From assembly GCF_964194155.1 (NCBI RefSeq), contig NC_135881.1, forward strand, positions 150,536,001 to 150,600,000: a DNA stretch of 64,000 bases. Direction: 5' to 3'. Positions 14,717-48,540 of this stretch are shown one piece after another. Origin of the DNA: Cetorhinus maximus. Its lineage: Eukaryota. Every line of letters starts with the position of its first letter. The stretch's first letter is position 1. The position numbers were made by a program, and so were the translations under genes. Under the pieces are notes generated by a model. That model searched no databases, had not been told where the DNA came from, and saw only the letters and a list, made by a program, of their open reading frames with translations.

Positions 14717-16119
14717 TGGCCTAGATTTTCATCCCCTAGGTGGGTAGGTGGAGTCAGGAAAATTCCTGGCTCGGATCCACCCACCTCGAGAGAAGTGCCT
14801 GCAGAGACAAGATTTTCATTGCTGGGGGATTGAGGGTGGCTGGAATCGGGCCAACCCAGGAAGAAGTGAGGAGGCAGCCCTGGGGCCTGCCTTGGTGCTG
14901 TGGGGCTTTGTTCCAGCTAAAACAAAAAACACAAAGGCCCTCCATCCCTCCTTCACCCTCCAAACACTCCCTATGCTCCATCCATGCCACCTCAGGGCCC
15001 CCACCCACCTCCCATGCCACCTATCCCAAACTCTGCCCCTCTACCCACCCCAATGGCCCCTCATACGCCCAGATATGGCTCTTCCATACCCATTGACCCA
15101 CTCTACACTTTCTAGAACCAATGAACCCTAGAGTGTACAGTGGGAAGGGTAGAAAAATGCTTTTAAAAAAGTAATTCATTGAGAACTTTCTCCTATGTTT
15201 GAAAGGTCTGAGCTACAAGTTAATAAAAGTGTCAATCATCCAGACCCTTTGAAACACTATGAAACTGATAGCAGAGATCAGAGAGCTTGAGCTGTCAATC
15301 AATTTCCTCTGGGGAGCAGATCTTCTCATATTCTAATAGCCGCCTGAGCTCTCAACCAAGAATACATAATGAGGCTTGGCCATCAGTAACCGGTTTTATG
15401 CATTCCAGGTCCACTGACTGGAAGATCCTGGATATACCTATGGCAGAGCCCTCGAAGGACCCAAAGGCAAGATAGTTGAGTTTGGCCATCTCTCTGACAG
15501 CTACTGGTATTGTGTGGCTACCAGCAGGCTACAGGTTTTCTTTTACCACCATCTGATGCAATAATCTTAGCCTCCTGAACATTTGCTGTTCCAACATGTC
15601 AAGTAAACTCAGCCTCTGGCTAAACACACTGTGTCACAATTAGTGCCACCCCTCTGCTGCTCCCCCTGTGGTAATTATGGTCTTATTTGATGTGCATTAT
15701 ACCTTTAAGAAGAATGTTATTAAGGAAGATCACATGATCTTAGTGTCCAATAGGAGGATAGTGTGGGCTCCCTCCGTAGTTAATGGTTGGTAGTGTAGAG
15801 ATAGAGTTTAAAGTGAAAGCACATGTTTAGTTGCTGCTGAGTACATTTGTAAATAAACTAAAAGTTTCCCACCTGAGAAGTGTGTGCTGATCAACTCCAT
15901 AAATAGTACCAACTCGCCCATCACTCACAACAAACTGGCGATGAAGATCCACAGGATCTAACAAACTGGTGACGAGGATCTACAAGACTCAACAAACTGG
16001 TGACGAGGATGAAACAAGTTTAACAGAAGAAATCAAAAGAGGTGAAATTGGCGCTGTACATCGCACATTAATTGTCAGTAGAAGCACCGTTCAAATCGAC
16101 GAAGTAATTCCCTCACAGA

Positions 16120-17240
16120 ATGCTGTAATTCAGAAGAATTGATCCTTTTGATCCAGCAACAGAAGACTGGTCTCACTACTTGGAACGTCTCACATTCTTT
16201 TTCCAAGCAAATGCGATTACGAGGGAAGAGAAGTTACAGGAGATTCTCTTAAGTACATGGCTTGATTCGAAGTTTGATGGCACTCAGTGCCCCAAATTCG
16301 AAAACTTTTTATGAATTGATGGACCTTGTGAAGGGTCATTATCAACCAAAGCCCTCAGTAATGATGCAAAGGTTCAAGGTTAACTCGAGAAATAGAGCCC
16401 CGCGGGAGACAGCCGCATGCTATGAGGCAAGTTTGAAGTAATTAATGGAACATTGTGAGTTTGGTACTTCCCTAAACAATATGCTTAGAGATTGTGAATG
16501 AGGACATGATTCAGAAGTGATTGTTATTTGAAGCAAATTTGGATTTCAAGAAGGCATTAGAGATAGCATTGGTAATGGAAAATGCAGAAAGAGATTCAAA
16601 AGCCATACAGGGCACGCAAAATGGAGCTGTCCTCCACGTCAGCTGGGATGCCCCAACCAAAAAGGGCACAAAATACATGCCGAGAAGCAGGAAAATGAGA
16701 AAAAATGACTTAGCAGCAAAAACAAGGAATAATTTCAATAGAGATGGAAACAGGCAGTCTTTTGATGATTGGCAGTTTAAAAAAAATAGAATGTTTTTAT
16801 TATCATGGTAATGGGCAGATAATGAGACAGTGCAAGGAAAGAATCAAGCAGACTTTTAAACAAAAGAAAAAACACAGTGAGATCTACAATGTAGAAGATC
16901 CTGAAACAACAAATTCAGATATTTACTCATTGTTTAATTTGAAGGTTGGAAAGACAGAACCAATATATGTAACAGTGAAAGTGAATGGTAGAGCTGTTAG
17001 AATGGAAGTGGACACAGGAGCTTCCACTACAGTAATTGGTGAACAGACCTTCAAATGTCTGAATAATTTAGGATAATTAAATTTAGAAGAAACAACTGCC
17101 CAATGAAAACATACACCAGTGAAGACAAAGGCAGAAGCAGAGTAAAAGTCTATTATGGAAGCCAAACGGCAAAGCTACCAGTATTAGTATTGAGAGGCAG
17201 AGGACCAAGCCTTCTCAGGCAAAACTGGCTCAAGGAATCA
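16120..17240 (+). pseudogene. Gypsy gag and aspartic protease (frameshifted)
   Basis: IDPFDPATEDWSHYLERL, LDFKKALEIALVMENAERD, degenerate zinc knuckle CFYYHGNGQIMRQC, protease MEVDTGASTTVI. Confidence 0.85.
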
Positions 17241-17289
17241 GCCTTGAGTGGCCACTGAGATTCCAAAAGGAAGCTGGAAGCATTTTGTT

Positions 17290-17710
17290 TTGGAGTGTGT
17301 AAAGACTCAGCAACCTGAAGAAACACAGGCTGTCTTAAGCCAAAACATGGTAGAACAGGAGAAGGAACTCAAGGACACTATGCTTGATGACAGAGTTCAT
17401 GATGAGGTGAGAAATCTTCGAAAGGATAAAGAAAACCTGCTGAAAGACCTTCACATGCTACAAGATTCCCTCAGGTCTAAGTTTGTACCTCTGGAAAAGT
17501 CTGAAGAGAAACAGAAAGAATTCAGCACTTCTCTGAATAAACTGAAGAATGAGTTGGCAGAAAAGTACAACAATGCTCAATTTTCCAGGAGGCAGCAAAC
17601 AAATACAAAGAAGAGATGAAAGAGCTGAATAATCAGCTACATGAAGCCAAAAAGGCTTTGGAGGCAAAAGTCGTGGAATTTTCTAAGCAGGCAGATGATA
17701 AAATTTTAGG
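17290..17710 (+). pseudogene. Non-retroviral coiled-coil segment resembling UACA/RAI14/ANKRD24-family proteins, at the RT position
   Basis: ORFs 17248..17619 and 17616..17801: EKELKD...EVRNLRKDKENLLKDLHMLQDSLRSKFVPLEKSEEKQKEFSTSLNKLKNELAEKY; no RT motifs. Similarity is recalled, not searched. Confidence 0.55.
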
Positions 17711-17869
17711 AGACTCAACCGTTGAGTTCACTCAAGTCGGACTTGCACCTGAGAGTAGTCTGGCCAATATTGAAGCCAATAGAAAAGAAGGGCAAGATTA
17801 AAGTCAGTGCTGGGAAGAGGAAGGCACGTATAAAGAAGGCACAGAAACACAAATAAGTCTTTAATCCTG

Positions 17870-19085
17870 GCAGCATATGAGTATACTTTTGTACATAGGC
17901 CTGGCAGTCAAATTGCAAACGCTGACACACTTAGTCATTTGCCTTTATGAGAAAATGATGAGGAAGCCCCAGTTCCCCAGGAACTTGTTTTATTGTTAAT
18001 TTCCTTAGATTCCTCACCAGAATGCGCTCAACAGATCAGAGATTGGACAAGTTGGGGCCCAGTCCTATCCAAAGTATGAGAACAAGTACTTCACGCTTGG
18101 TCACAAGAGCCTGTATCTGATGAAATGAAATCATACTCAACAGAAGACATGAAATAACCAGCCAGGATGGCATCTTATTGTGGGGAACACGAGTGATAAT
18201 AGCTCCAAAGGGAAGAGGGCCATTGCTAATTGAACTACACAGCACACATCCAGGAATGTCCCGAGTGAAGACCATAGCACGCAGCTACCTATAGTGGCCT
18301 GGGATGGATGGTGAAATGGAGAGTTTAGTGAAGAATTGTGTGCGATGTCTGCAACTGCAAAAGTTACTTCAACAGCTCCGTTACACCCTTGGGAGTGGCA
18401 AGGAAAACTGTGGTTGCGGTTACACATTGATTATGTGGGATCTTTCATGGGAATAATGTTTCTGCTCATTGTTGATGCCCAATCAGAATGGATGGACATA
18501 TATGAGGTGAAGTCAACAATATCTTCTGCTACAATTGAGAAGTTACGTCAAAGTTTTGCCATTAACAGATCACCAGAAGTGGTCGTTTCTGATAACGACA
18601 CGGCATTTATGAGTGCTGAGTTTTAGCGGCTTATCAACCTCAATGGTATCACTCATGTAAAAACTTCATCGTACCACCCTTCCTCGAATGGACTGACCAA
18701 AAGGGCGGTTCAAACATTCAAGGCAGGCATGAAGAAGCTAAACGGAGATTCCCTAGCAACCAAGCCAGCACACTTTCTTATCCCGTACAAGACCACCCCT
18801 CACCCAATCACAGGTGTCACACCTGTACAGTTATTGATGAAACACCAAATTTAGGGGGGATGGTGGAAAGGAGCCAGGGAAGTCAGAAACTAGACACGAC
18901 TGGCATCATGGTGAGAGAAAATTTAGCGTGGGAGAAACAGTATACGTGAAGAACTTTGGAGAAGGACCAAAATGGTTACAGGGTGAAATAACTGCAGTGA
19001 CTGGACCTCTATCTTACCACGTGGAGGTGGAAGGCTGAGTCATATGGAGATATTTGGATCATCTAAGGAAGAGAGAAATGAATCA
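17870..19085 (+). pseudogene. Gypsy RNase H C-terminal tail and integrase (frameshifted)
   Basis: HRPGSQIANADTLSHLP; HHCC region LHSTHPGMSRVK...CVRC; core LHIDYVG...IVDAQSEW...VVSDND; YHPSSNG. Confidence 0.88.
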
Positions 19086-20151
19086 CCAAGAAGTGATTCC
19101 ACTAGTGTTCACGACCAGGTCAGTGTTTCCTGTTGAGAGAACTCCACTGAGTACAGACAAATCTGATATTCCTTCAAGAGTGGAGGATACAGATCTGCAG
19201 TTACCCGCCAAAGCACCTGATGTTTGGGTAACTCAGAAAAGGAGGTTCCTGACAAAGCACCTGTAGTTGTAGAGCTGAGTTGCCCTACGTGCATAATGAA
19301 ACCCCCAGAAAGTCTAAATTTGTAAATTACTTATCAGTGTAAATATTTTGCTACTTTGAGAAAATTGTAATTGTAAATGTAAAATGTATTTCTGAGTATA
19401 GGGGGAGGGATGTGGTAATTATGGTTTTATATTAAAGGTAATATACCTTTAAAAAGAATGTTATTAAGGAAGATCACATGATCTTAGTATCCAATAGGAC
19501 AGTAGCGTGGGCTAACTCAGTAGTTAGTAGTTGGCAGTGTAGAGATAGAGTTTGAAGTGAAAGTACATGTTTAGTTACTGCTGAGCACTTTTGTAAACAA
19601 ACTATAAATTTCCTACCGATAAAGTGTCTGCTGATCAACTCTATCAATAGTACCAACTTTCCCAACACTTACAACAAACTGGTGATGAGAATCCATAGGA
19701 TCCAACAAACTGACGATGAGGACCTACAGGACTCAACACCCCTCTGCTGCTGCCCTTTCTCCCATATTCATTTGTGGGTCTCTTAACAGCAAGCTGCTGC
19801 TGCTGCTAGAGTTGGTGCTGGTCCCTTGCCTGAGGTACTATCTAAGGCAGCCAAAGTGCTATTCATCCTTCTATGATTCATAAAACCTCCAAAGTATAGA
19901 AATTAAACTCTTGGCAGAAGTATTGTGCAACAACACCTTCCCACTAGCTGGTAAGAAAGCAGTTGTGAGTACTGAGCATTATTACAGCATATCTATAAAT
20001 TGGTACTAGCCCCCTCTATTGCCATTGTGTTGGTTTGCTTTGCAAGTTTTACAAAGCCTACAAACCCCACGAATGCAACATTAAAATTAAAACTGTGTTG
20101 AAATATTGCTTCAATTAAGCAATTACCATACATTAATAGACAACCCACATC

Positions 20152-22082
20152 TTTTTTTTTTGTAAAAATATACTTTATTCATAAAATATCTTCAATCACA
20201 TTCCAAACCATTTCAAAAACAACATTACAAGGGTACAATCCAGGTTACACTTTTACAAGATGTATCACCAGGTGCATCAGTACAAACAATATTACAATCA
20301 TTTACAGCCTTTCATTTTGATCTGTACAGCCCGAGGGGCTCTAAACAGTTCCCAGTCTCTCGGTGCGCTGTGGTAGAAAGGTCTTAGACAGCGACCCTTC
20401 CCCATTGCGCCTTTGCGGCAGCTGCCCCAAGCTTTAGTGCGTCCCTCAGCATGTAGTCCTGGACTTTGGATTGTGCCAGTCCGCAACAATCGGTCGGGGA
20501 CAACTCTTTGTGCTGGAAGACCAACAAGTTTCGGGCAGACCAAAGCGCGTCTTTCACCGAGTTGATGATCCTCCAGCTGCAGTTGATGTTTGTCTCGGTG
20601 TGTGTCCCTGGGAACAGCCCATAGAGCACAGAGTCCTGTGTCACAGAACTGCTCGGGATGAACCTCGACAGCAACCACTGCATCTCTCTCCAGACTTTCT
20701 TTGCAAAGGCACAATCCACAAGGAGGTGAACAACGGTCTCTTCCCCACCACAGCCACCTCGAGGGCAACGTGCAGAGGGGGTGAGCCTCCTGGCGTGTAG
20801 GAAGGATCTGACGGGGAGGGCCTTTCTCACCACCAGCCAAGCTACGTCTTGGTGCTTGTTGGAAAGTTCTGGCGATGAGGCATTCTGCCAAATGACTTTG
20901 ACAGTCTGCTCGGGGAACCATCCCACAGGGTCCACCCTCTCCTTTTCCCTCAGGGCCTCTAGGACGTTACGTGCTGACCACTGCCTGATGGACTTGTGGT
21001 CAAAGGTGTTTTTCTGCATAAATTTTTCCACCAGGGACAGGTGGTACGGCACGGTCCAACTACTTGGAGCGTTCCGCGGCAGCGTGGCCAGACCCATCCT
21101 TCGCAACACCGGGGACAGGTAGAACCTCAGCACGTAGTGACACTTGGTGTTTGCGTACTGAGGGTCTACGCACCGCTTGATGCAGCCACACACAAAGGTG
21201 GCCATCAGTATGAGGGCGATGTTGGGCACGTTTTTTCCCCCTTTATCTAGAGGCTTGTACATCGCGTCCCTGCGGACACGATCCATTTTCGACCTCCAGA
21301 TAAAGCGGAAGATGGCTCGAGTGATCGCCATCGCGCAGGAGTCTGGAATGGGCCAGACCTGCGCCACGTACAGCAACAGCGAGAGTACCTCACACCTGAT
21401 GACCAGGTTCTTTCCCGCAATGGAGAGGGAGCGTCGCTCCCACATGCCCAGTTTCCTTTTCACCATAGCCACTCGCTCCTTCCAGTTTCTAACGCATGCC
21501 CCGGTCCCTCCGAACCATATCCCCAGCACCTTCAGGCCGTCAGCCCTGACAGTGAAGGGGACAAAGGATCGGTCAGCCCAGTTCCCAAAGAACATGGCCT
21601 CGCTCTTCCCACGATTTACCTTGGCTCCCGAGGCCAGTTCGAACTGGTCGCAGATGTGCATCAGTCTGCGCACCGACAGCGGATCCGAGCAGAAGACGGC
21701 GACGTCGTCCATGTACAGGGAGGCTTTTACCTGAGTGCCTCCACTGCCTGGGATCGTCTCTCCTCTTATGCCCGGATCCTTCCTGATGGACTCGGCAAAG
21801 GGTTCTATGCAACACACGAAAAGGACAGGCGAGAGAGGACAGCCCTGCCTGACTCCAGATTTGATCGGAAAGCTATCTGTTTCCCACCCATTGATTGAGA
21901 CTGCGCTACTGATGTTAGTGTAGAGCAGTTGGATCCAATTTCGAATTCCCTCCCCAAACCCCATTTTGGAGAGCACATCCCCCATGTAGGTGTGCGATAT
22001 TCTGTCAAAGGCCTTCTCCTGATCCAAGCTGATGAGGCAGGTATCCACACCCCTGTCCTGTACATAGGCAATCGTATCCCTG
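20152..22082 (-). mobile_element. Tx1/L1-clade LINE, 5'-truncated, young
   Basis: Poly(A) tail; perfect 16-bp TSD AGACAACCCACATCTT (20138-20153 and 22083-22098); uninterrupted ORF2 fragment. Confidence 0.95.
20384..22082 (-). CDS. Tx1-like ORF2 C-terminal part (RT and zf-RVT), 5'-truncated
   Basis: LDQEKAFDRISH, GVRQGCPLSP, LYMDDV, CPRGGC...ETVVHLLVDC. Confidence 0.9.
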
Positions 22083-23544
22083 AGACAACCCACATCTTCT
22101 GAGGAGGTTGCACACAACCTGCCTAACCTGTTCGAGTTAAAAGCATGTGTTTGAGGTTTGAACTGGCTTTCTGACCCACTTACATTTTTGCCAGACTTAC
22201 TGTCTCACCCTGCCACCCACACCCAAACCCATGTGCTCCCCCAGGTTAAAATTACATTCCTTCCATCCTATCTATGCCACTTGGAATGGGAAGTACAGGC
22301 AGACATAGGGCTCTGTCTATCTCTATGTCCCCTGATGATTTACGGCTCCTTAGGCAAATGAGAAATTGTTAGAAATGGTGGATAATTGGCCTTTACCAGG
22401 AGAACTCCATTGATTTCCTGCTGAAGTAACAGTGGAAAAGTAGACGAACTTCTGAGTTTGTGATTGATGTTATATTTCTGGTGTTAAAGGATAAGAGTTG
22501 TATGATTGCCCCACTTTCTTTTTCAATTCCACACAATATTCATTGGCTGGCGGATGTCCACTATATTTATTTAACTGCTTAAATCAGAAATGAAGTGACA
22601 GTGTGGCTAATATGAAAAAATAATTTAAATGTCTACCTAACACAAGTAGTAAATCAATTCTACAATATCACTGAAAATTGAATGGTATCATTTTTATTAT
22701 GATATACAGGATACTGTTACTTTGATCTTACATCTTGTAATGGATTGCATTTATAAACTAAGTAGATTATTTTTAAAATGAAAGCATTTTACTCCACAAT
22801 GTATGTTCTTAACATGTAGATGATGAAGTATAATTAAAAGATATTCATCAAAATGATTCGAACTATAAAAGAAATTTTCTTCAGAGCTTGTGTTTTATTC
22901 TAGCACATTTTCAAGCTACAGTGGAAGGTCAGAAGAAAGCACAACTAGGAACAGAAGCAATAAATAATTTGTGCTGTGAAGTGATGTGTTGCCAAGAACA
23001 AAATGCATCATTTTTTCTTACAGTGACAATTTATATTTTGCATATAAATAAAACATTAAGCATGCTGCAAATACTGTAATTCCCAGTGAAGGAGAGTAAG
23101 ATTAGATTACCTTCCGTATGAATGGCCTTTCTTATCCTTTGAAAAATAGTCTACCTTCATCCACCTTCATGTACATATAAGGTAGAAATGACAACTCATC
23201 AGCAAATTATGTGGGGGTAATGTCCCTCCGAGAAAATAACTTCTCCACCTGTCTCCCTTTGTATTCTGAATAACAGTGGGGAAGGAGCATTGAGACCCAA
23301 AAAACATTTAAGGGGAGTTTGCCACATTTAAGAGGATGCTTGATGCATATATGAGGGAGCAGGAAATATAGGGATATGGGCGCATGGTGGATACGGGTAT
23401 TTAGACCGGGAAGAGACTCATGCTGAATATGAATAACAGTCAGGTCAGGTGGGACGAATATCTTGCATCTACGCTACAGAACCAAATGGCCTAATCTTAA
23501 CTGTGAGATGAGCTGAGATTCGGCGGACTGATATCTTTGCCGCT

Positions 23545-23894: not shown

Positions 23895-25478
23895 CTGTTG
23901 TAGCCATAATACTTATATGACTGGTCCAGTTGAGTTTCTGGTCTGTGGTAACCCTCCAAGATGTTGATAGTGGGGGATCCAGCGATAGTAATGCCATTGA
24001 ATGTCAAGCCTGAATGCTGTCCAGGTCTTGCTGCATATTGGCACGGATTGCTTCAGTATCTGAGGAGTTGCAAATGGAACTGAACACTGAGCAATAATCA
24101 ACGAACATCTCCATATCTGATCTCATGTTTGAAAGAAGTTCATTGGCGAAGCAGCTGAAGATGTTTGGGCCGAGGACACTACCCTGAGGAACTCCAGCAG
24201 CAATGTCCTTGAGCTGAGATGACTGACCCCGAACAACCACAACCATCTTCCTTTGTGCTAGGTATGACTCCAACCAGTGCAGAGTTTTACACCAATTCCC
24301 ATTAACTTCAAGTTTGCCAGGGTTCCTTGATGCTACACTTGGTCAAGTGCTACCTTGATGTCAAGGGTAGTCACTCACCTCACCTCAGCTCTTTTGTCCA
24401 TTCTTAGACTAAGGCTGTCATGCGGTCAGGAGCTAAGTGGTCCTGGCAGAACCCAAACTGAGCATCAATGAGCAAGTTATTGCTGTGTAAATGTCACTCA
24501 ATAGCACTGTCGATGACATCATCCATCACTTTGCTGATTGGCCTGGTTGAGTTTGTCCTGTTTTTTGTGTACAGGACATACCTGGGCAATTTTCCACATA
24601 GCTGGGTAGATGCCAGTGTTGTAGCTGTACTGGAACAGCTTGGCTAGGAATGCAGCAAATTCTGGAGCACAAGTCTTCAGTACTATTGTCGGAATGTTGT
24701 CAAGGCCCATAGTTTTGCAGTATCCAATGCCTTCAGCCGTTTGTTGATATCACGTGGAGTGAAGCGAATTGGCTGAAGACTGGCATCAGTGAACCTGGGA
24801 ACCTCAGGGGACCTCAGCAGGAGGCCGAGATGGATCATCCATACGGCACTTCTGGCTAAAGATGGTTGCAAATGCTTCAGCCTTATCTTTTGCACTAATT
24901 TGCAGGGCTCCGCCATCATTGAGGATGGGGAGATTTGTGGTGCCTCCTCCCCCTCTTGTTAATTGTTTCATTGTCCCCCACCATTCATGACTAGATGAGG
25001 CTGGATTGCAGAGTTTTGATTTGATCCATTGTTGTGGGGTCACTTAGCTCTGCCTATTGCATGCTGCTTACCCTGTTTGGCACGCAAGTAGTCCTTCACC
25101 AGGTTGACACCTCATTTTTAGGTATGCCTGGTCCTGCTCCTGGCATGCCCTCCTGCACTTTTTATTGAACCAGACTGGATCCCCGGCTTGATGGTAATGG
25201 TAGAGTGAGCAATATTCTGGGCCATGAGATTACAGATTGTGGGTGAATACAATTCTGCTGCTGCTAGTGGCCCACAGTGCTTCATTTATATGGCTAGTCC
25301 AGATGGATACTTATCAGCCCTCTTATTTGTTCTCTCACCCACCTACTGCAAGCCCAAACTGGCAGATATGTCCTTCAGGACCTGGCTAACTCGGTCAGTA
25401 GTTGTGTCACCAAACCACTTTTCATGATAGACTTTGAAGTCCCCCATCCAGAGTACATTATGTGCCCTTGTCATCCTC
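23895..25478 (-). mobile_element. CR1-group LINE (second family), older decayed copy with APE and RT remnants
   Basis: GVPQGSVLGP, LAKLFQYSYNTG; APE-like VLWMGDFK at ~25430-25460; homologous to the adjacent + copy. Confidence 0.88.
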
Positions 25479-27478
25479 AGTTCAATGAAGAGTGCAGGGG
25501 GGCGTGCCAGGAGCAGCACCAGGCATACCTAAAAATGAGGTGTCAGCCCGGTGAAGCTATAAAACAGGACTACTTGTGTGCCAAACAGCATAAGCAGCAA
25601 GTGATAGACAGAGCTCAGCGATCCCACAACCAACGGGTCAGATCTAAGCTCTGCAGTCCTGCCACATCGAGTCGTGAATGATGAAGGACAATTAAACAAC
25701 TAAGTGGAGGAGGTGGCTTCACAAATACCCCCATCCTCAATAATGGAGGAGCCCAGCACAGCAGTGCAAAAGATAAGGCTGAAGTATTTGCAACAATCTT
25801 CATCCAGAAGTGCCGAGTGGATGATCCATCTTGGCCTCCTCCGGAGGTCCCCAGCATCACAGATGCCAGTCTTCAGCCAATTCAATTCACTCCATGTGAT
25901 ATGAAGAAATGGCTGAAGGCACTGGACACTGCAAAGGCTATGGGCCTTGACAACATTCCAGCAACAGTACTTATGCTTCAGAATTTGCCGTGCCCCTAGC
26001 CAAGCTGTTCCAGTACAGCTACAACACTGGCATCTGCCCGGCAATGTGGAAAATTGCCCAGATATGTCCTGTACACAAAAAGCAGGACAAATCCAACCCA
26101 GCCAATTACTGCCCCATCAGTCCACTCTCGAGCATCAGTAAAGTAATGGAAGGGGTCATCAACTGTGTTATCAAGCGGCACTTGCTTAGGAATAACCTGC
26201 TCACTGATGCCCAGTTTGGGTTCCGCCAGGGCCACTCAGCTCCTGACATCGTTTCAGCCTTGTTTCAAACATGAACTAAAGAACTGAACTCCCGAAGTGA
26301 GGTGAGAGTGACTGCCCTTGACATCAAGGCTGCATTTAACCAAGTGTGGCATCAAGGAGCCCTAGCAAAACTGCAGTTAATGGGAATCAGGGGGAAAACT
26401 CTCCACTGGTTGGAGTCATACCTAGCACAAAGGAAGATGGTTGTGGTTGTTGGAGGTCAGTCATCTCAGCTCCAGGACATCACTGCAGGAGTTCCTCAGG
26501 GTAGTGTCCTAGGCCTAACCATCTTCAGCTGCTTCATCAATAACCTTCCTTCCATCATAAGGTCAGAAGTGGGGATGTTCACTGATGATTGCACAATGTT
26601 CAGCACCATTTGTGACTCCTCAGACACTGAAGCAGTCCATGTCCAAATGCAGCAAGACCTGGACAATATCCAGGCTTGGGCTGACAAGTGGCAAGTAACA
26701 TTCACGCCACACAAGTGTCAGGCAATGGCCATCTCCAACAAGAGAGAATCCAACCATCGCCCCTTGATGTTCAATGGCATTACCATCACTGAATCCCCCA
26801 CAATAAACATCCTGGGCTTTACCATTGACCAGAAACTGAACTGGACTAACTATATAAATACCGTGGCTACAAGAGCAGGTCAGAGGCTAGGAATCGTGCG
26901 ACAAGTAACTCACCTCCTGACTCCCCAAAGCTTGTCCACCATCTACAAGGCACAAGTCAGGAGTGTGATGGAATACTCCCCACTTGCCTGGATGAGTGCA
27001 GCTCCTACAACACTGAAGAAGCTGGACACCGTTCAGGACAAAGCAGTCCACTTGGTTGGCACCACATCCACAAACATTCACTCCCTTCACCACCGATGGA
27101 CAGTAACAGCATTGTGTACCATCTACAAGATGCAGTGCAGGAATTCACCAAGGCTCCTTAGACAGCTCCGTTCAAACCCATGGCCACTACCACCTAGAAG
27201 GACAAGGGCAGCAGATAGGTGGGAACACCACCACCTGGATGTTCCCTTCCGAGTCACTCACCATCCTGACTTGGAAATATATCGCCGTTCCTTCACTGTC
27301 ACTGGGTCAAAATCCTGGAACTCCCTTCCTAACAGCACTATGGGTGTACCTACACCACATGGACTGCAGCAGTTCAAGAAGGCAGCTCACCACCACCTTC
27401 TCAAGGGCAACTAGGGATGGGCAATAAATGTTGGCCCAGCCAGCGAAGCCCACATCCCGTGAATGAATAAAAAAAAAC
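25479..27478 (+). mobile_element. CR1-group LINE (second family), 5'-truncated, 3' end intact
   Basis: QFGFRQGHS, ALDIKAAF, GVPQGSVLG, FTDDC; ends GAATGAATAAAAAAAAA. Confidence 0.92.
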
Positions 27479-45804: not shown

Positions 45805-48540
45805 GTGAGTTCCCGCGACGTGGTGTGACGCACATGGATTCAGTGCCGCAAGCATTTCAGTGACCTCTTGCGCTCTAGAAGGGTGAGTGCCATGTTGGCA
45901 TTGGTCACTTAACACAACAGGTCAGCTTTCCCCGCTGGCTACCACTGCCCCCCCACCAACTCTGAGTGCAGTTACTGCATTGAGTCATTGACGGCATGTG
46001 TCCTTTGCTGGCTTGGCCAGCAGATGTTGCCCGTGCCGAGGTCACCCTGAGAGGGTGATGATGAGATTGGTTCTGCACTCATTAGATTGACACCCACATT
46101 ACTATTTTGGGGTCAGCCTGGAGGATCTGCATCTAGGCGCCGTGCTGCAACTGCAAAACGTGTCACAGTCAGGGTGCTGACATGCTGGGAGGGGAGCTTC
46201 CAGGAGGCACGGCACTGATCCATCTGCTGCCCTTTGCATTCCATGTGCTTGCACCTTCTTGCTTTGCAAGCTTAGACCATGTGATGCCAAATGTGATGTA
46301 GGCAGCATTTGGCCGGGGGGCTGGTATGGACAGTCCTGGTATCTTTGTGTGAGTGTGCAGCAGCTGTGGAGTGAGGAGGCACTGGAGCCCTCAATGTCCC
46401 ATTATGGTTGGCGTGGGACGGCAGCGAAGAGATTCCAGGTACAAGTTGCACTAATCAATGCTCTTCTCTCCATTTCAGGAGAAGAATGCTCATAGTGCCG
46501 CTGAGCGATTGAGGACTGGCGGAGAGCCGGCCCAGTTGGCGATCAATAGCGGGTTTGAGCAGGAGGCCTTCCATCTGGAGAGGCCGCCATGCGCCCAGGT
46601 CCACCGGTGTCGGTGAGGCTGGGGTGCCACGGGCAGGTATGGTTGCCCAGCACTGAGGTCACCATTAGTGTCCAAGCAGCCATGGCACTGCTGAATGTTC
46701 AGTGATTGAAGTTTGCAACATGGCTTGACCATTGTTTACGGAAGGATGAGCGAATAGTGATCCAGGGGACAGGGATGCACATTGGCATTGTCTCCACGTT
46801 AACTAATCAAATGTCCTTCTTCCTTTCAGCATCAGCGGAGCAGGGCTGGGAGGAGGAGCAGCAGGGGCCCCCTCTCACACCTGAGGGCCCTGAAGTCTCT
46901 GACCCAGCAGCATCACACCATTTCTGCCAGAAAGGCACCAACGCAGATACTAACACCTTGGTGAGAATTAGATCATCGGCTAGTGTCCTGGGGTACAGCG
47001 GTGAGGGCACTTCATAGTCGCTGGAGGAGCTGGCAGAGACAGAGAGCGTCCATGGCGCCAGCAGTCGGAGGACTGCAGGGGACCAGGCACACGCTCAGTC
47101 GGTGGCTGATGATGTGCCTCTGGAGTCGTCCGTGAGGCAGCAAATGCTGGAAGTCCAGCAGAGTGTGCAGGAAGATCTGGCAGAGATACATGAGGCTATG
47201 CTTGACTTGGTCTTCATGGTGGAGGAGTCCACGCGGACCATTGCCAATGCAATGAGTCTCATGGCCAAGCGCCATGCTTCCTCCATGGAGAGAGTGGTGA
47301 CTGTCATGGAAAGGCTCCTCCAGGAGACCAATCAGGGCTTCCTGGGGATGCACTCTGACCAGCAAGCCCTCACATCGGCATTGACCTCAGCTGGTCAGTG
47401 CCAGTGTGGGAGATGGTCTGGGCACCAAGTTTCCCAGCTCGGTGCCCATCCATCTACGGTGAGCAGGGAGGTCTGAAGCGACCTCATGTCGGCCAGCAGC
47501 TGCCTGTCGTCTCTGCGGGCTCCTCTCAGGGCGCTCCGGATGAGGGCAGCAGCTTCTCCGCCCCTCTGCCAGTGACCGTGGCATCCGATGAGGCTGCAAC
47601 AACTGGGGAGATGCCAGCTATGGAACTGGCTGCTCCCTCCCAGGCGGGGCCAGCACAGGCTCCACGGGCCAGAGGACAATCGCCAAGGTCATCAAGGCCA
47701 ACAGGACAGCAGAGAGAGCAGGCTGTCTCAGATGCCAGTGCCAGCGAGGGGGGGAGCACCTTTTTTTTTTTTTTTTTTGTAAAAATATACTTTATTCATA
47801 AAAATCTTCAATCACATTCAAAACCATTTCAAAAACAACATTACAAGGGTACAATCCAGGTTAAACTTTTACAAAATGTATCACCAGGTGCATCAGTACA
47901 AACAATATTACAGTCATTTACAGCCTTTCATTTTGATCTGTACAGCCCGAGGGGCTCTAAACAGTTCCCAGTCTCTCGGTGCGCTGTGGTAGAAAGGTCT
48001 TAGACAGCGACCCTTCCCCATTGCGCCTTTGCGGCAGCTGCCCCAAGCTTTAGTGCGTCCCTCAGCACGTAGTCCTGGACTTTGGATTGTGCCAGTCCGC
48101 AACAATCGGTCGGGGACAACTCTTTGTGCTGGAAGACCAACAAGTTTCGGGCAGACCAAAGCGCGTCTTTCACCGAGTTGATGATCCTCCAGCTGCAGTC
48201 GATGTTTGTCTCGGTGTGTGTCCCTGGGAACAGCCCGTAGAGCACAGAGTCCTGTGTCACAGAACTGCTCGGGATGAACCTCGACAGCAACCACTGCATC
48301 TCTCTCCAGACTTTCTTTGCAAAGGCACAATCCACAAGGAGGTGAACAACGGTCTCTTCCCCACCACAGCCACCTCGAGGGCATCGTGCAGAGGGGGTGA
48401 GCCTCCTGGCGTGTAGGAAGGATCTGACGGGGAGGGCCTTTCTCACCACCAGCCAAGCTACGTCTTGGTGCTTGTTGGAAAGTTCTGGCGATGAGGCATT
48501 CTGCCAAATGAGGGGGGGAGCACCTAGACGAAGCACCTGA
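45805..48540 (+). pseudogene. Harbinger Myb/SANT-like gene, multi-exon, disrupted
   Basis: RTWIQCRKHFSDLLRSRR|GTGAGT (45882); acceptor CATTTCAG|EKNAHSAAERLRTGG (46478); acceptor CCTTTCAG (46828) then coiled-coil QQMLEVQQSVQEDL. Confidence 0.8.
47761..48509 (-). mobile_element. Tx1/L1-clade LINE, 5'-truncated, near-identical to the 3' part of the 20152 copy
   Basis: Poly(A) tail; perfect TSD GAGGGGGGGAGCACC (47746-47760 and 48510-48524); zf-RVT C-terminus. Confidence 0.95.

Follow-up and report, generated by a model that had tools for sequence, protein, structure and literature searches.

The window, i.e. the whole 64,000-nucleotide stretch of DNA analysed here, contains on its forward strand, at 15667-19738, a decayed Gypsy-type LTR element from which the reverse transcriptase (RT) is absent. 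The element is flanked by a 5-bp target-site duplication (TSD; 15662-15666, with one mismatch to its partner at 19739-19743), and the 5-bp TSDs of the sister copies L073 and L074 are exact. The 5' LTR (15667-15994) and the 3' LTR (19411-19738) measure 328 bp each, run from TG to CA and are 15% apart (p-distance 0.152). The primer-binding site (PBS; 15998-16010) is complementary in 12 of its 13 bases to the 3' end of tRNA-Ser(GCT), and a polypurine tract (PPT) lies at 19401-19410. The element thus shows the hallmarks of Ty3/Gypsy: TG...CA LTRs, a TSD of 4-6 bp, a tRNA PBS and a PPT. At the 3' ends of the LTRs stand 31-nt repeats that duplicate the PBS (15929-16040 and 19673-19738), and the number of units differs among copies.

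Both gag (16120-16840) and the aspartic protease (16930-17253, with DTGA at 17011) are broken in this copy. The gag pieces gave no Pfam match, the CCHC knuckle being intact in some sister copies, and the protease remnant matches Asp_protease_2 (E 2e-6). A diverged, retrotransposon-derived and non-host linker follows (17254-17291), in register by eye with the RT-bearing copies. It leads, in the protease frame, into a coiled coil derived from the host gene UACA, made of residues ~903-1026 (17292-17632) and ~1174-1210 (17633-17732), which are joined across a 450-nt deletion common to another group of elements, family X. The cassette is completed by the family-X linker and a lysine/arginine-rich tail (17733-17856), ending in a stop codon at 17854-17856. 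The last RNase H codons and the integrase (17859-19330) lie behind this stop, in the +1 frame, and are also broken; the integrase remnant matches Integrase_H2C2 (E 1.5e-8) and rve (E 3e-4). Frameshifts near 17285, 17565 and 17781 break the window copy. Neither in this element nor in the RT-bearing copy L075 is there room for env between integrase and PPT.

Only ~600 nt separate the protease remnant from the RNase H tail. RT-bearing relatives, which share LTR, gag, protease and integrase with the window element at 70-82%, have ~1320 nt of RT/RNase H at the equivalent site (RVT_1 E 5e-18, RT_RNaseH E 1e-25). Their order is protease, RT, RNase H and integrase, as in Ty3/Gypsy, and the window element has its protease, RNase H tail and integrase in the same order. 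A Pfam search of 17245-17870 in its three sense frames yielded no family at E<=0.001; RT is therefore absent there. An autonomous element has to encode RT and RNase H, and this one does not. Elsewhere in the window there is a LINE-like RT frame of 606 codons on the reverse strand (20184-22204), with a 98% copy of its end at 47800-48099, and a large inverted repeat at 23956-26815 (~85%, arms >1 kb).

Identity and copy number of the cassette

The broken open reading frame of the window copy found no match when used as a single-sequence query; an Atlas search of the cassette returned generic coiled coils only, and PDB and Pfam searches weak coil matches only. A profile of 12 natural copies gave seven matches among 7998 scored candidates (best E 3e-34), six of them ankyrin-repeat coiled-coil proteins, five named UACA and one unnamed. 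The remaining match is a Carcharodon gene model that contains part of the cassette. The similarity is beyond chance, since an open copy scored 123 bits against shark UACA and the maximum of 200 composition-matched shuffles was 47.8. The preliminary description had likened the insert to UACA, which this search confirms as the host gene, and had mentioned RAI14 and ANKRD24 beside it, neither of which is among the seven matches. The coiled-coil peptide that it quoted is indeed present in the insert; its UACA register, at about residue 1051 of the possum protein, is shifted by one repeat, as the similarity there is highest from residue ~917 onwards.

Over 221 nt the window insert and the single host UACA locus agree at 76%, and the identity between cassette and host exon is 70-77%, or 47% at the amino acid level. 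The host counterpart sits inside one 2.7-kb exon, itself 95% identical to the Carcharodon protein, and so the UACA part spans no intron whose loss could mark a descent from mRNA. A hydrophobic period of 3.5-3.55 is among the top peaks of the cassette. The insert had been placed at 17245-17870, as a sense-strand sequence without RT motif. Its orientation and the absence of the motif stand, but the limits have to be narrowed: the host-derived part begins near 17292, because the first ~14 codons align, by eye, with the post-protease linker of the RT-bearing helper, and the UACA homology stops near 17732, where the non-UACA tail with its basic stretch begins.

We refer as W to the family that carries the same cassette and junctions as the window element. 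All 40 scored DNA matches (of 4180 candidates, window included) span nearly the whole insert at 85-88%, and in each of the 20 fetched copies the insert lies between protease and RNase H tail with the same junctions, RT being deleted and not interrupted. A 32-nt junction pattern yielded 48 exact matches, of which seven are shared with the 40, giving at least 81 distinct loci. A rough capture-recapture calculation puts the number near 270, probably an underestimate, since copies of low divergence are over-represented in both samples. The window element is one decayed copy of a multi-copy Gypsy-type family without RT, non-autonomous as had been proposed. A secondary insertion, which had been considered as a competing outcome, does not account for the insert, which has neither TSD nor poly(A) of its own and is not single-copy.

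In W a single frame leads from gag by way of protease and cassette to the stop; in the copies L008 (288 open codons) and L004 the cassette continues the protease frame. W copies are dispersed, with their own TSDs, and share LTR ends, PBS and PPT with the RT-bearing elements, for which a junction pattern gave 241 matches; sizeable RT sequence was found in 10 of the 12 fetched. In three sequencing runs, whose RNA nature is a guess, contigs extend across the 5' or the 3' junction, which attests the presence of the family and not its transcription. Some near-copies lie in pairs on the same contig (L008/L009; L138/L139, identical over the cassette; L118/L119), suggesting segmental duplication or gene conversion.

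Family X and the exchange of modules

A search with UACA recovered the host locus and 32 dispersed loci, 19 of which were fetched. Outside the cassette none of these 19 matches the window element, and 12 of them have terminal direct repeats of their own. The elements of this family X (L039-L056, L058, L101, L105-L110) are ~3-4.5 kb long and carry pieces of three host genes, namely a stretch of the UACA exon (nt ~859-2409) in which deletions are nested, followed by a linker of ~30 codons, a ninein fragment (E 2e-31, host exon located) and an intron-less TPR fragment (PF25481, above cut-off). The UACA and ninein parts correspond to one exon each. In the TPR part successive host exons are fused, at least five introns being missing and the match ending at AG/GT, which shows that this part of the donor family was captured from RNA. 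In the search for the family X tail the best 150 of 2271 candidates were scored. Protease, RT and integrase found no match in family X; a remnant that we take to be gag was assigned by eye from its resemblance, and Pfam did not confirm it. Two other segments, L048:5095-5176 between UACA and ninein and L049:3900-4140 before UACA, are coiled-coil-like, with no donor gene assigned.

Aligned with X copies, the W insert stays colinear through the 450-nt deletion and into the non-UACA linker. A host-rooted tree (44 rows, 360 columns) places W together with its sister subfamily V on one branch (100/100), inside the group of X copies with the deletion. As the deletion and the non-UACA tail are shared and W/V is nested in X, it is likely that the cassette was acquired second-hand, from an LTR family that already carried the deleted UACA chimera. 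The preliminary description had inferred a capture directly from host mRNA, which on the same grounds is hardly tenable.

The four shared deletions, of 282, 102, 450 and 126 nt, have identical runs of 6-11 nt and are all multiples of three. Their lengths were considered as evidence of selection and set aside, as 59-71% of the microhomology pairs in the exon are in frame anyway (null in-frame rate 0.59-0.71). The captured segments contain 39-44% A, compared with 37% in gag-protease. The junctions between element and cassette are highly diverged, and only short A-rich overlaps are visible.

Subfamily V (12 loci) has gag, protease and the same cassette, without the RNase H tail and most of the integrase. 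In subfamily U (13 pattern matches and L021) the cassette stands in for the RT half with the catalytic motif; behind it come, out of frame, the second half of RT, RNase H and integrase. The cassette tree puts W inside U (97/95, the bootstrap being not fully settled). U was considered as an ancient intermediate and rejected, for its RT half is at about zero net distance from the RT-bearing copies; for the same reason recombination with a helper of its own time is the better reading of U. At the cassette/RT junction of L128-L140, 9 of 13 pattern matches have in the cassette frame the heptamer A AAA AAG, a motif that would shift -1 into the frame of the RT half and integrase; it may simply reflect how rich in A this junction is. 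Two further loci, L057 (the same as L129) and L131, are recombinants of the W-type and X families: their W-type LTR and integrase flank a 5' part resembling X, an incomplete cassette and the second RT half.

The W integrase mixes on the tree with those of the RT-bearing L026 and L027. It lies behind a stop in another frame, a sister subfamily does without it, and helpers exchange it with W, all of which makes it a probable passenger. LTRs, PBS, PPT, gag and protease, the latter two broken, are there as had been claimed; 'kept' is probably not a fitting word for the integrase. Beyond the stop, we infer, the template was switched repeatedly to helpers active at the time, the 5' module from LTR through gag, protease and cassette to the stop being the stable unit.

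Selection on the cassette and its possible role

Individual copies decay privately at the neutral rate. Across 19 W copies, which are the best matches to the window copy and not a random sample, no stop occurs in more than four and no frameshift in more than two. In a neutral simulation with an LTR-derived spectrum, 158 codons gathered ~7.7 stops at equal divergence, and not one run out of 300 was free of stops. The dN/dS comparison that had been suggested for the insert gave 0.58 within W, as in the simulation, and a net value of 0.27 from X to W (bootstrap 0.16-0.46); L009, a near-duplicate of L008, was left out of the distance work. Third positions reached 0.40, against 0.24 and 0.17 (bootstrap P<0.001), and ~190 codons stayed open over a dS of ~0.75. 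The open protease frame, the few shared stops, the lower dN/dS and the excess at third positions indicate that the cassette was kept as a protein on the path from X to W.

On shorter branches the values were 0.52 for V against X (0.29-0.83), 0.37 for W against V (0.24-0.63), 0.41 for U against V (0.22-0.93) and 0.37 for U against the nearest X (0.21-0.62); individually they overlap neutrality and none reached significance. Between X and the host no third-position excess was found. The cassette is also far less constrained than its neighbours, dN/dS between W and V being 0.10 in gag and 0.16 in protease. The +1 frame of W is open over the last 75 cassette codons (17633-17858) into the integrase and contains ATGs, so that expression of integrase from such an ATG is possible; the corresponding frame has six fixed stops in X and four in V. 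Dual coding under selection for integrase expression is not supported, as U already lacks three of the stops though its +1 frame misses the integrase.

A second arrangement of this kind was found in lineage Y, in which a SCAN-gag, a protease-like region and an intron-less TPR coil form one long frame (669 open codons at L094:2936-4942; further loci L097-L099 and L103). In the search for the TPR family the best 150 of 1687 candidates were scored, all above cut-off. Intron loss is seen in Y as in X. The 5' junction of Y is unlike that of X, and on the tree the host falls on the Y side; a separate capture of TPR by Y is likely. Seven Y copies gave a net dN/dS of 0.17 against the host (0.09-0.28), a value that includes the purifying branch of the host itself, and the Y crown gave 0.40 (0.16-0.93) against three basal carriers, which like the shorter branches above is not significant.

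The explanation to which we lean, by a little, is that the UACA cassette was acquired from the other LTR family and kept as a dimerising module in place of RT. Family X would first have picked up transcripts of UACA, ninein and TPR while being reverse-transcribed, and its deleted cassette would then have switched, by template switching, into a Ser-primed Gypsy element behind the protease. The 5' module would have persisted, 3' parts being swapped in from contemporary RT-bearing helpers to give V, U and W. In mixed particles such an element could provide Gag and protease and package its own RNA, borrowing RT and integrase from the helper. The coil may pair Gag-protease chains and so promote protease activation or co-assembly, the job of RT in HIV-1 Gag-Pol. 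This last step is the least certain and is drawn by analogy. Indirect support comes from the place of the coil straight after the protease in two lineages, W-type and Y, from its period close to 3.5 and from work on HIV-1. In the available text of one HIV-1 study a leucine zipper after the protease raises Gag-PR multimerisation and cleavage (PMC3291649). The same text reports that the zipper lowers particle yield, so the analogy cuts both ways. Contact between RT molecules helps protease activation according to the accessible part of another source (PMC11998509).

The main rival keeps the second-hand history and sees in the cassette an open stuffer favoured by A-rich microhomology, needing only openness and solubility, for example for the sake of a translated or stable RNA or of the basic tail. 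Coiled-coil genes would then recur because their long A/G-rich exons offer many microhomologies. The low amino acid identity to the host fits this reading, as do the several branches indistinguishable from neutral, the A content close to that of gag-protease and the abundance of short repeats that are mostly in frame. However, a stop straight after the protease would serve a stuffer equally well, whereas ~190 codons stayed open with the reduced dN/dS given above, and lineage Y repeats the pattern with TPR. We therefore regard a stuffer as possible, though rather unlikely. A role at the RNA level, in which host-like sequence shields the element from small-RNA silencing, has been put forward for gene-capturing plant elements, as far as the available text of that source goes (PMC13317346). 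We consider it very unlikely here, as the identity to the host exon is only 70-77% and third codon positions diverged fastest, the opposite of nucleotide mimicry.

A host-domesticated gene, or a restriction factor against autonomous Gypsy elements, would explain an open fusion frame under selection, and a public gene model (P0021) is the cassette read as protein. The copies are nevertheless dispersed, bounded by TSDs and decaying privately, and that of the window is frameshifted, which leaves this idea with hardly any credit. Still less can be said for the idea that the window Gypsy took its UACA fragment straight from an mRNA. It would agree with the sense orientation, the in-frame fusion and the clear UACA homology, but deletion and tail would have to arise twice and W/V lies inside X; the shared deletion and tail largely refute it. 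A one-off secondary insertion or processed pseudogene within a single element is refuted by the 40 spanning matches and the 20 copies with common junctions and deleted RT.

Returning to the dimerising module, a wider proposition would be that LTR parasites of sharks repeatedly domesticated host coils, at least two unrelated Gypsy lineages having given up RT for a captured coil, of UACA or TPR, that is fused to their protease as a dimerisation module, and cassettes having been traded between families. We put this forward tentatively, at somewhat less than an even chance. If true, it would be a natural counterpart of the experiment with the protease-leucine zipper and would indicate a general route to high-copy Gag-protease parasites.

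Relation to known systems

The usual view of captured fragments in animal LTR elements is that they are passengers of recent date or a source of material for host genes. The shark evidence points in the opposite direction, to a fragment selected for the benefit of the element, moved between lineages, and to a design that appears twice with different donors. It also provides a testable handle on the structural contribution of RT to protease activation in single-ORF Gypsy elements. Moreover, it is a warning that 'expansions' of UACA, ninein or TPR, or odd shark gene models, can be transposon cargo. Residues ~390-439 of the Carcharodon gene model P0007 match the W cassette at 76%, with Ig/MHC-type domains alongside, an annotation artefact or an exonisation. 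In its available text, a Greenland shark preprint reports retrogenes near LINEs or LTRs and mentions neither Gypsy nor TPR (10.1101/2024.09.09.611499). No description of the present families was found in the literature searched; subscription journals, Repbase, Dfam or supplements could hold one. Gene capture by LTR elements is thus known, and its high-copy, selected and lineage-hopping form was not found in that literature.

Acutely transforming retroviruses depend on helpers and make gag-onc fusions, in which a host coding fragment replaces replication genes in frame. The preliminary description had drawn the analogy with oncogene-capturing retroviruses, and it fits as regards helper dependence and the in-frame fusion that replaces replication genes. 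It fails in that the shark element is env-less, has Gypsy-type genes and carries a structural instead of a signalling cargo.

The other systems are compared here as far as the available texts describe them. The extra ORF3s of bdelloid LTR elements include coiled-coil types common to diverse retroelements, but they are separate ORFs on autonomous elements and not host exons replacing RT (PMC5408684). Closer is the wheat pair RLG_Quinta/Sabrina (PMC11302176), in which a non-autonomous partner has the PBS and LTR ends of its helper, an intact Gag, an extra domain and segments swapped by template switching. Where the extra domain of Quinta comes from and what it does are not known according to that text, and a protease is missing, whereas the shark cassette is traced to a host gene and stands behind a constrained protease. 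Maize Bs1 carries fragments of three host genes in a hybrid ORF (via PMC5131818 and PMC13317346), which family X parallels with UACA, ninein and TPR. Bs1, however, exists in one to five copies with functionally unrelated donors; in the shark each of the three named donors contributed a coiled-coil region, and one of the cassettes has apparently moved into a protease fusion.

The closest likeness is to LTR-mediated retrocopies (Tan et al. 2016, PMC5131818), in which a sense-strand host fragment replaces part of an internal ORF. Here too the host fragment takes the place of such a part and lacks TSD and poly(A) of its own. Multi-gene chimeras, further retroposition in non-autonomous form and a few KA/KS values below 0.5 are also shared. 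The examples described in the available text are young and low-copy, whereas the shark families number dozens to hundreds of copies in deep subfamilies. Unlike those retrocopies, the shark case points to transfer between LTR lineages and to selection along the lineage of the element itself.
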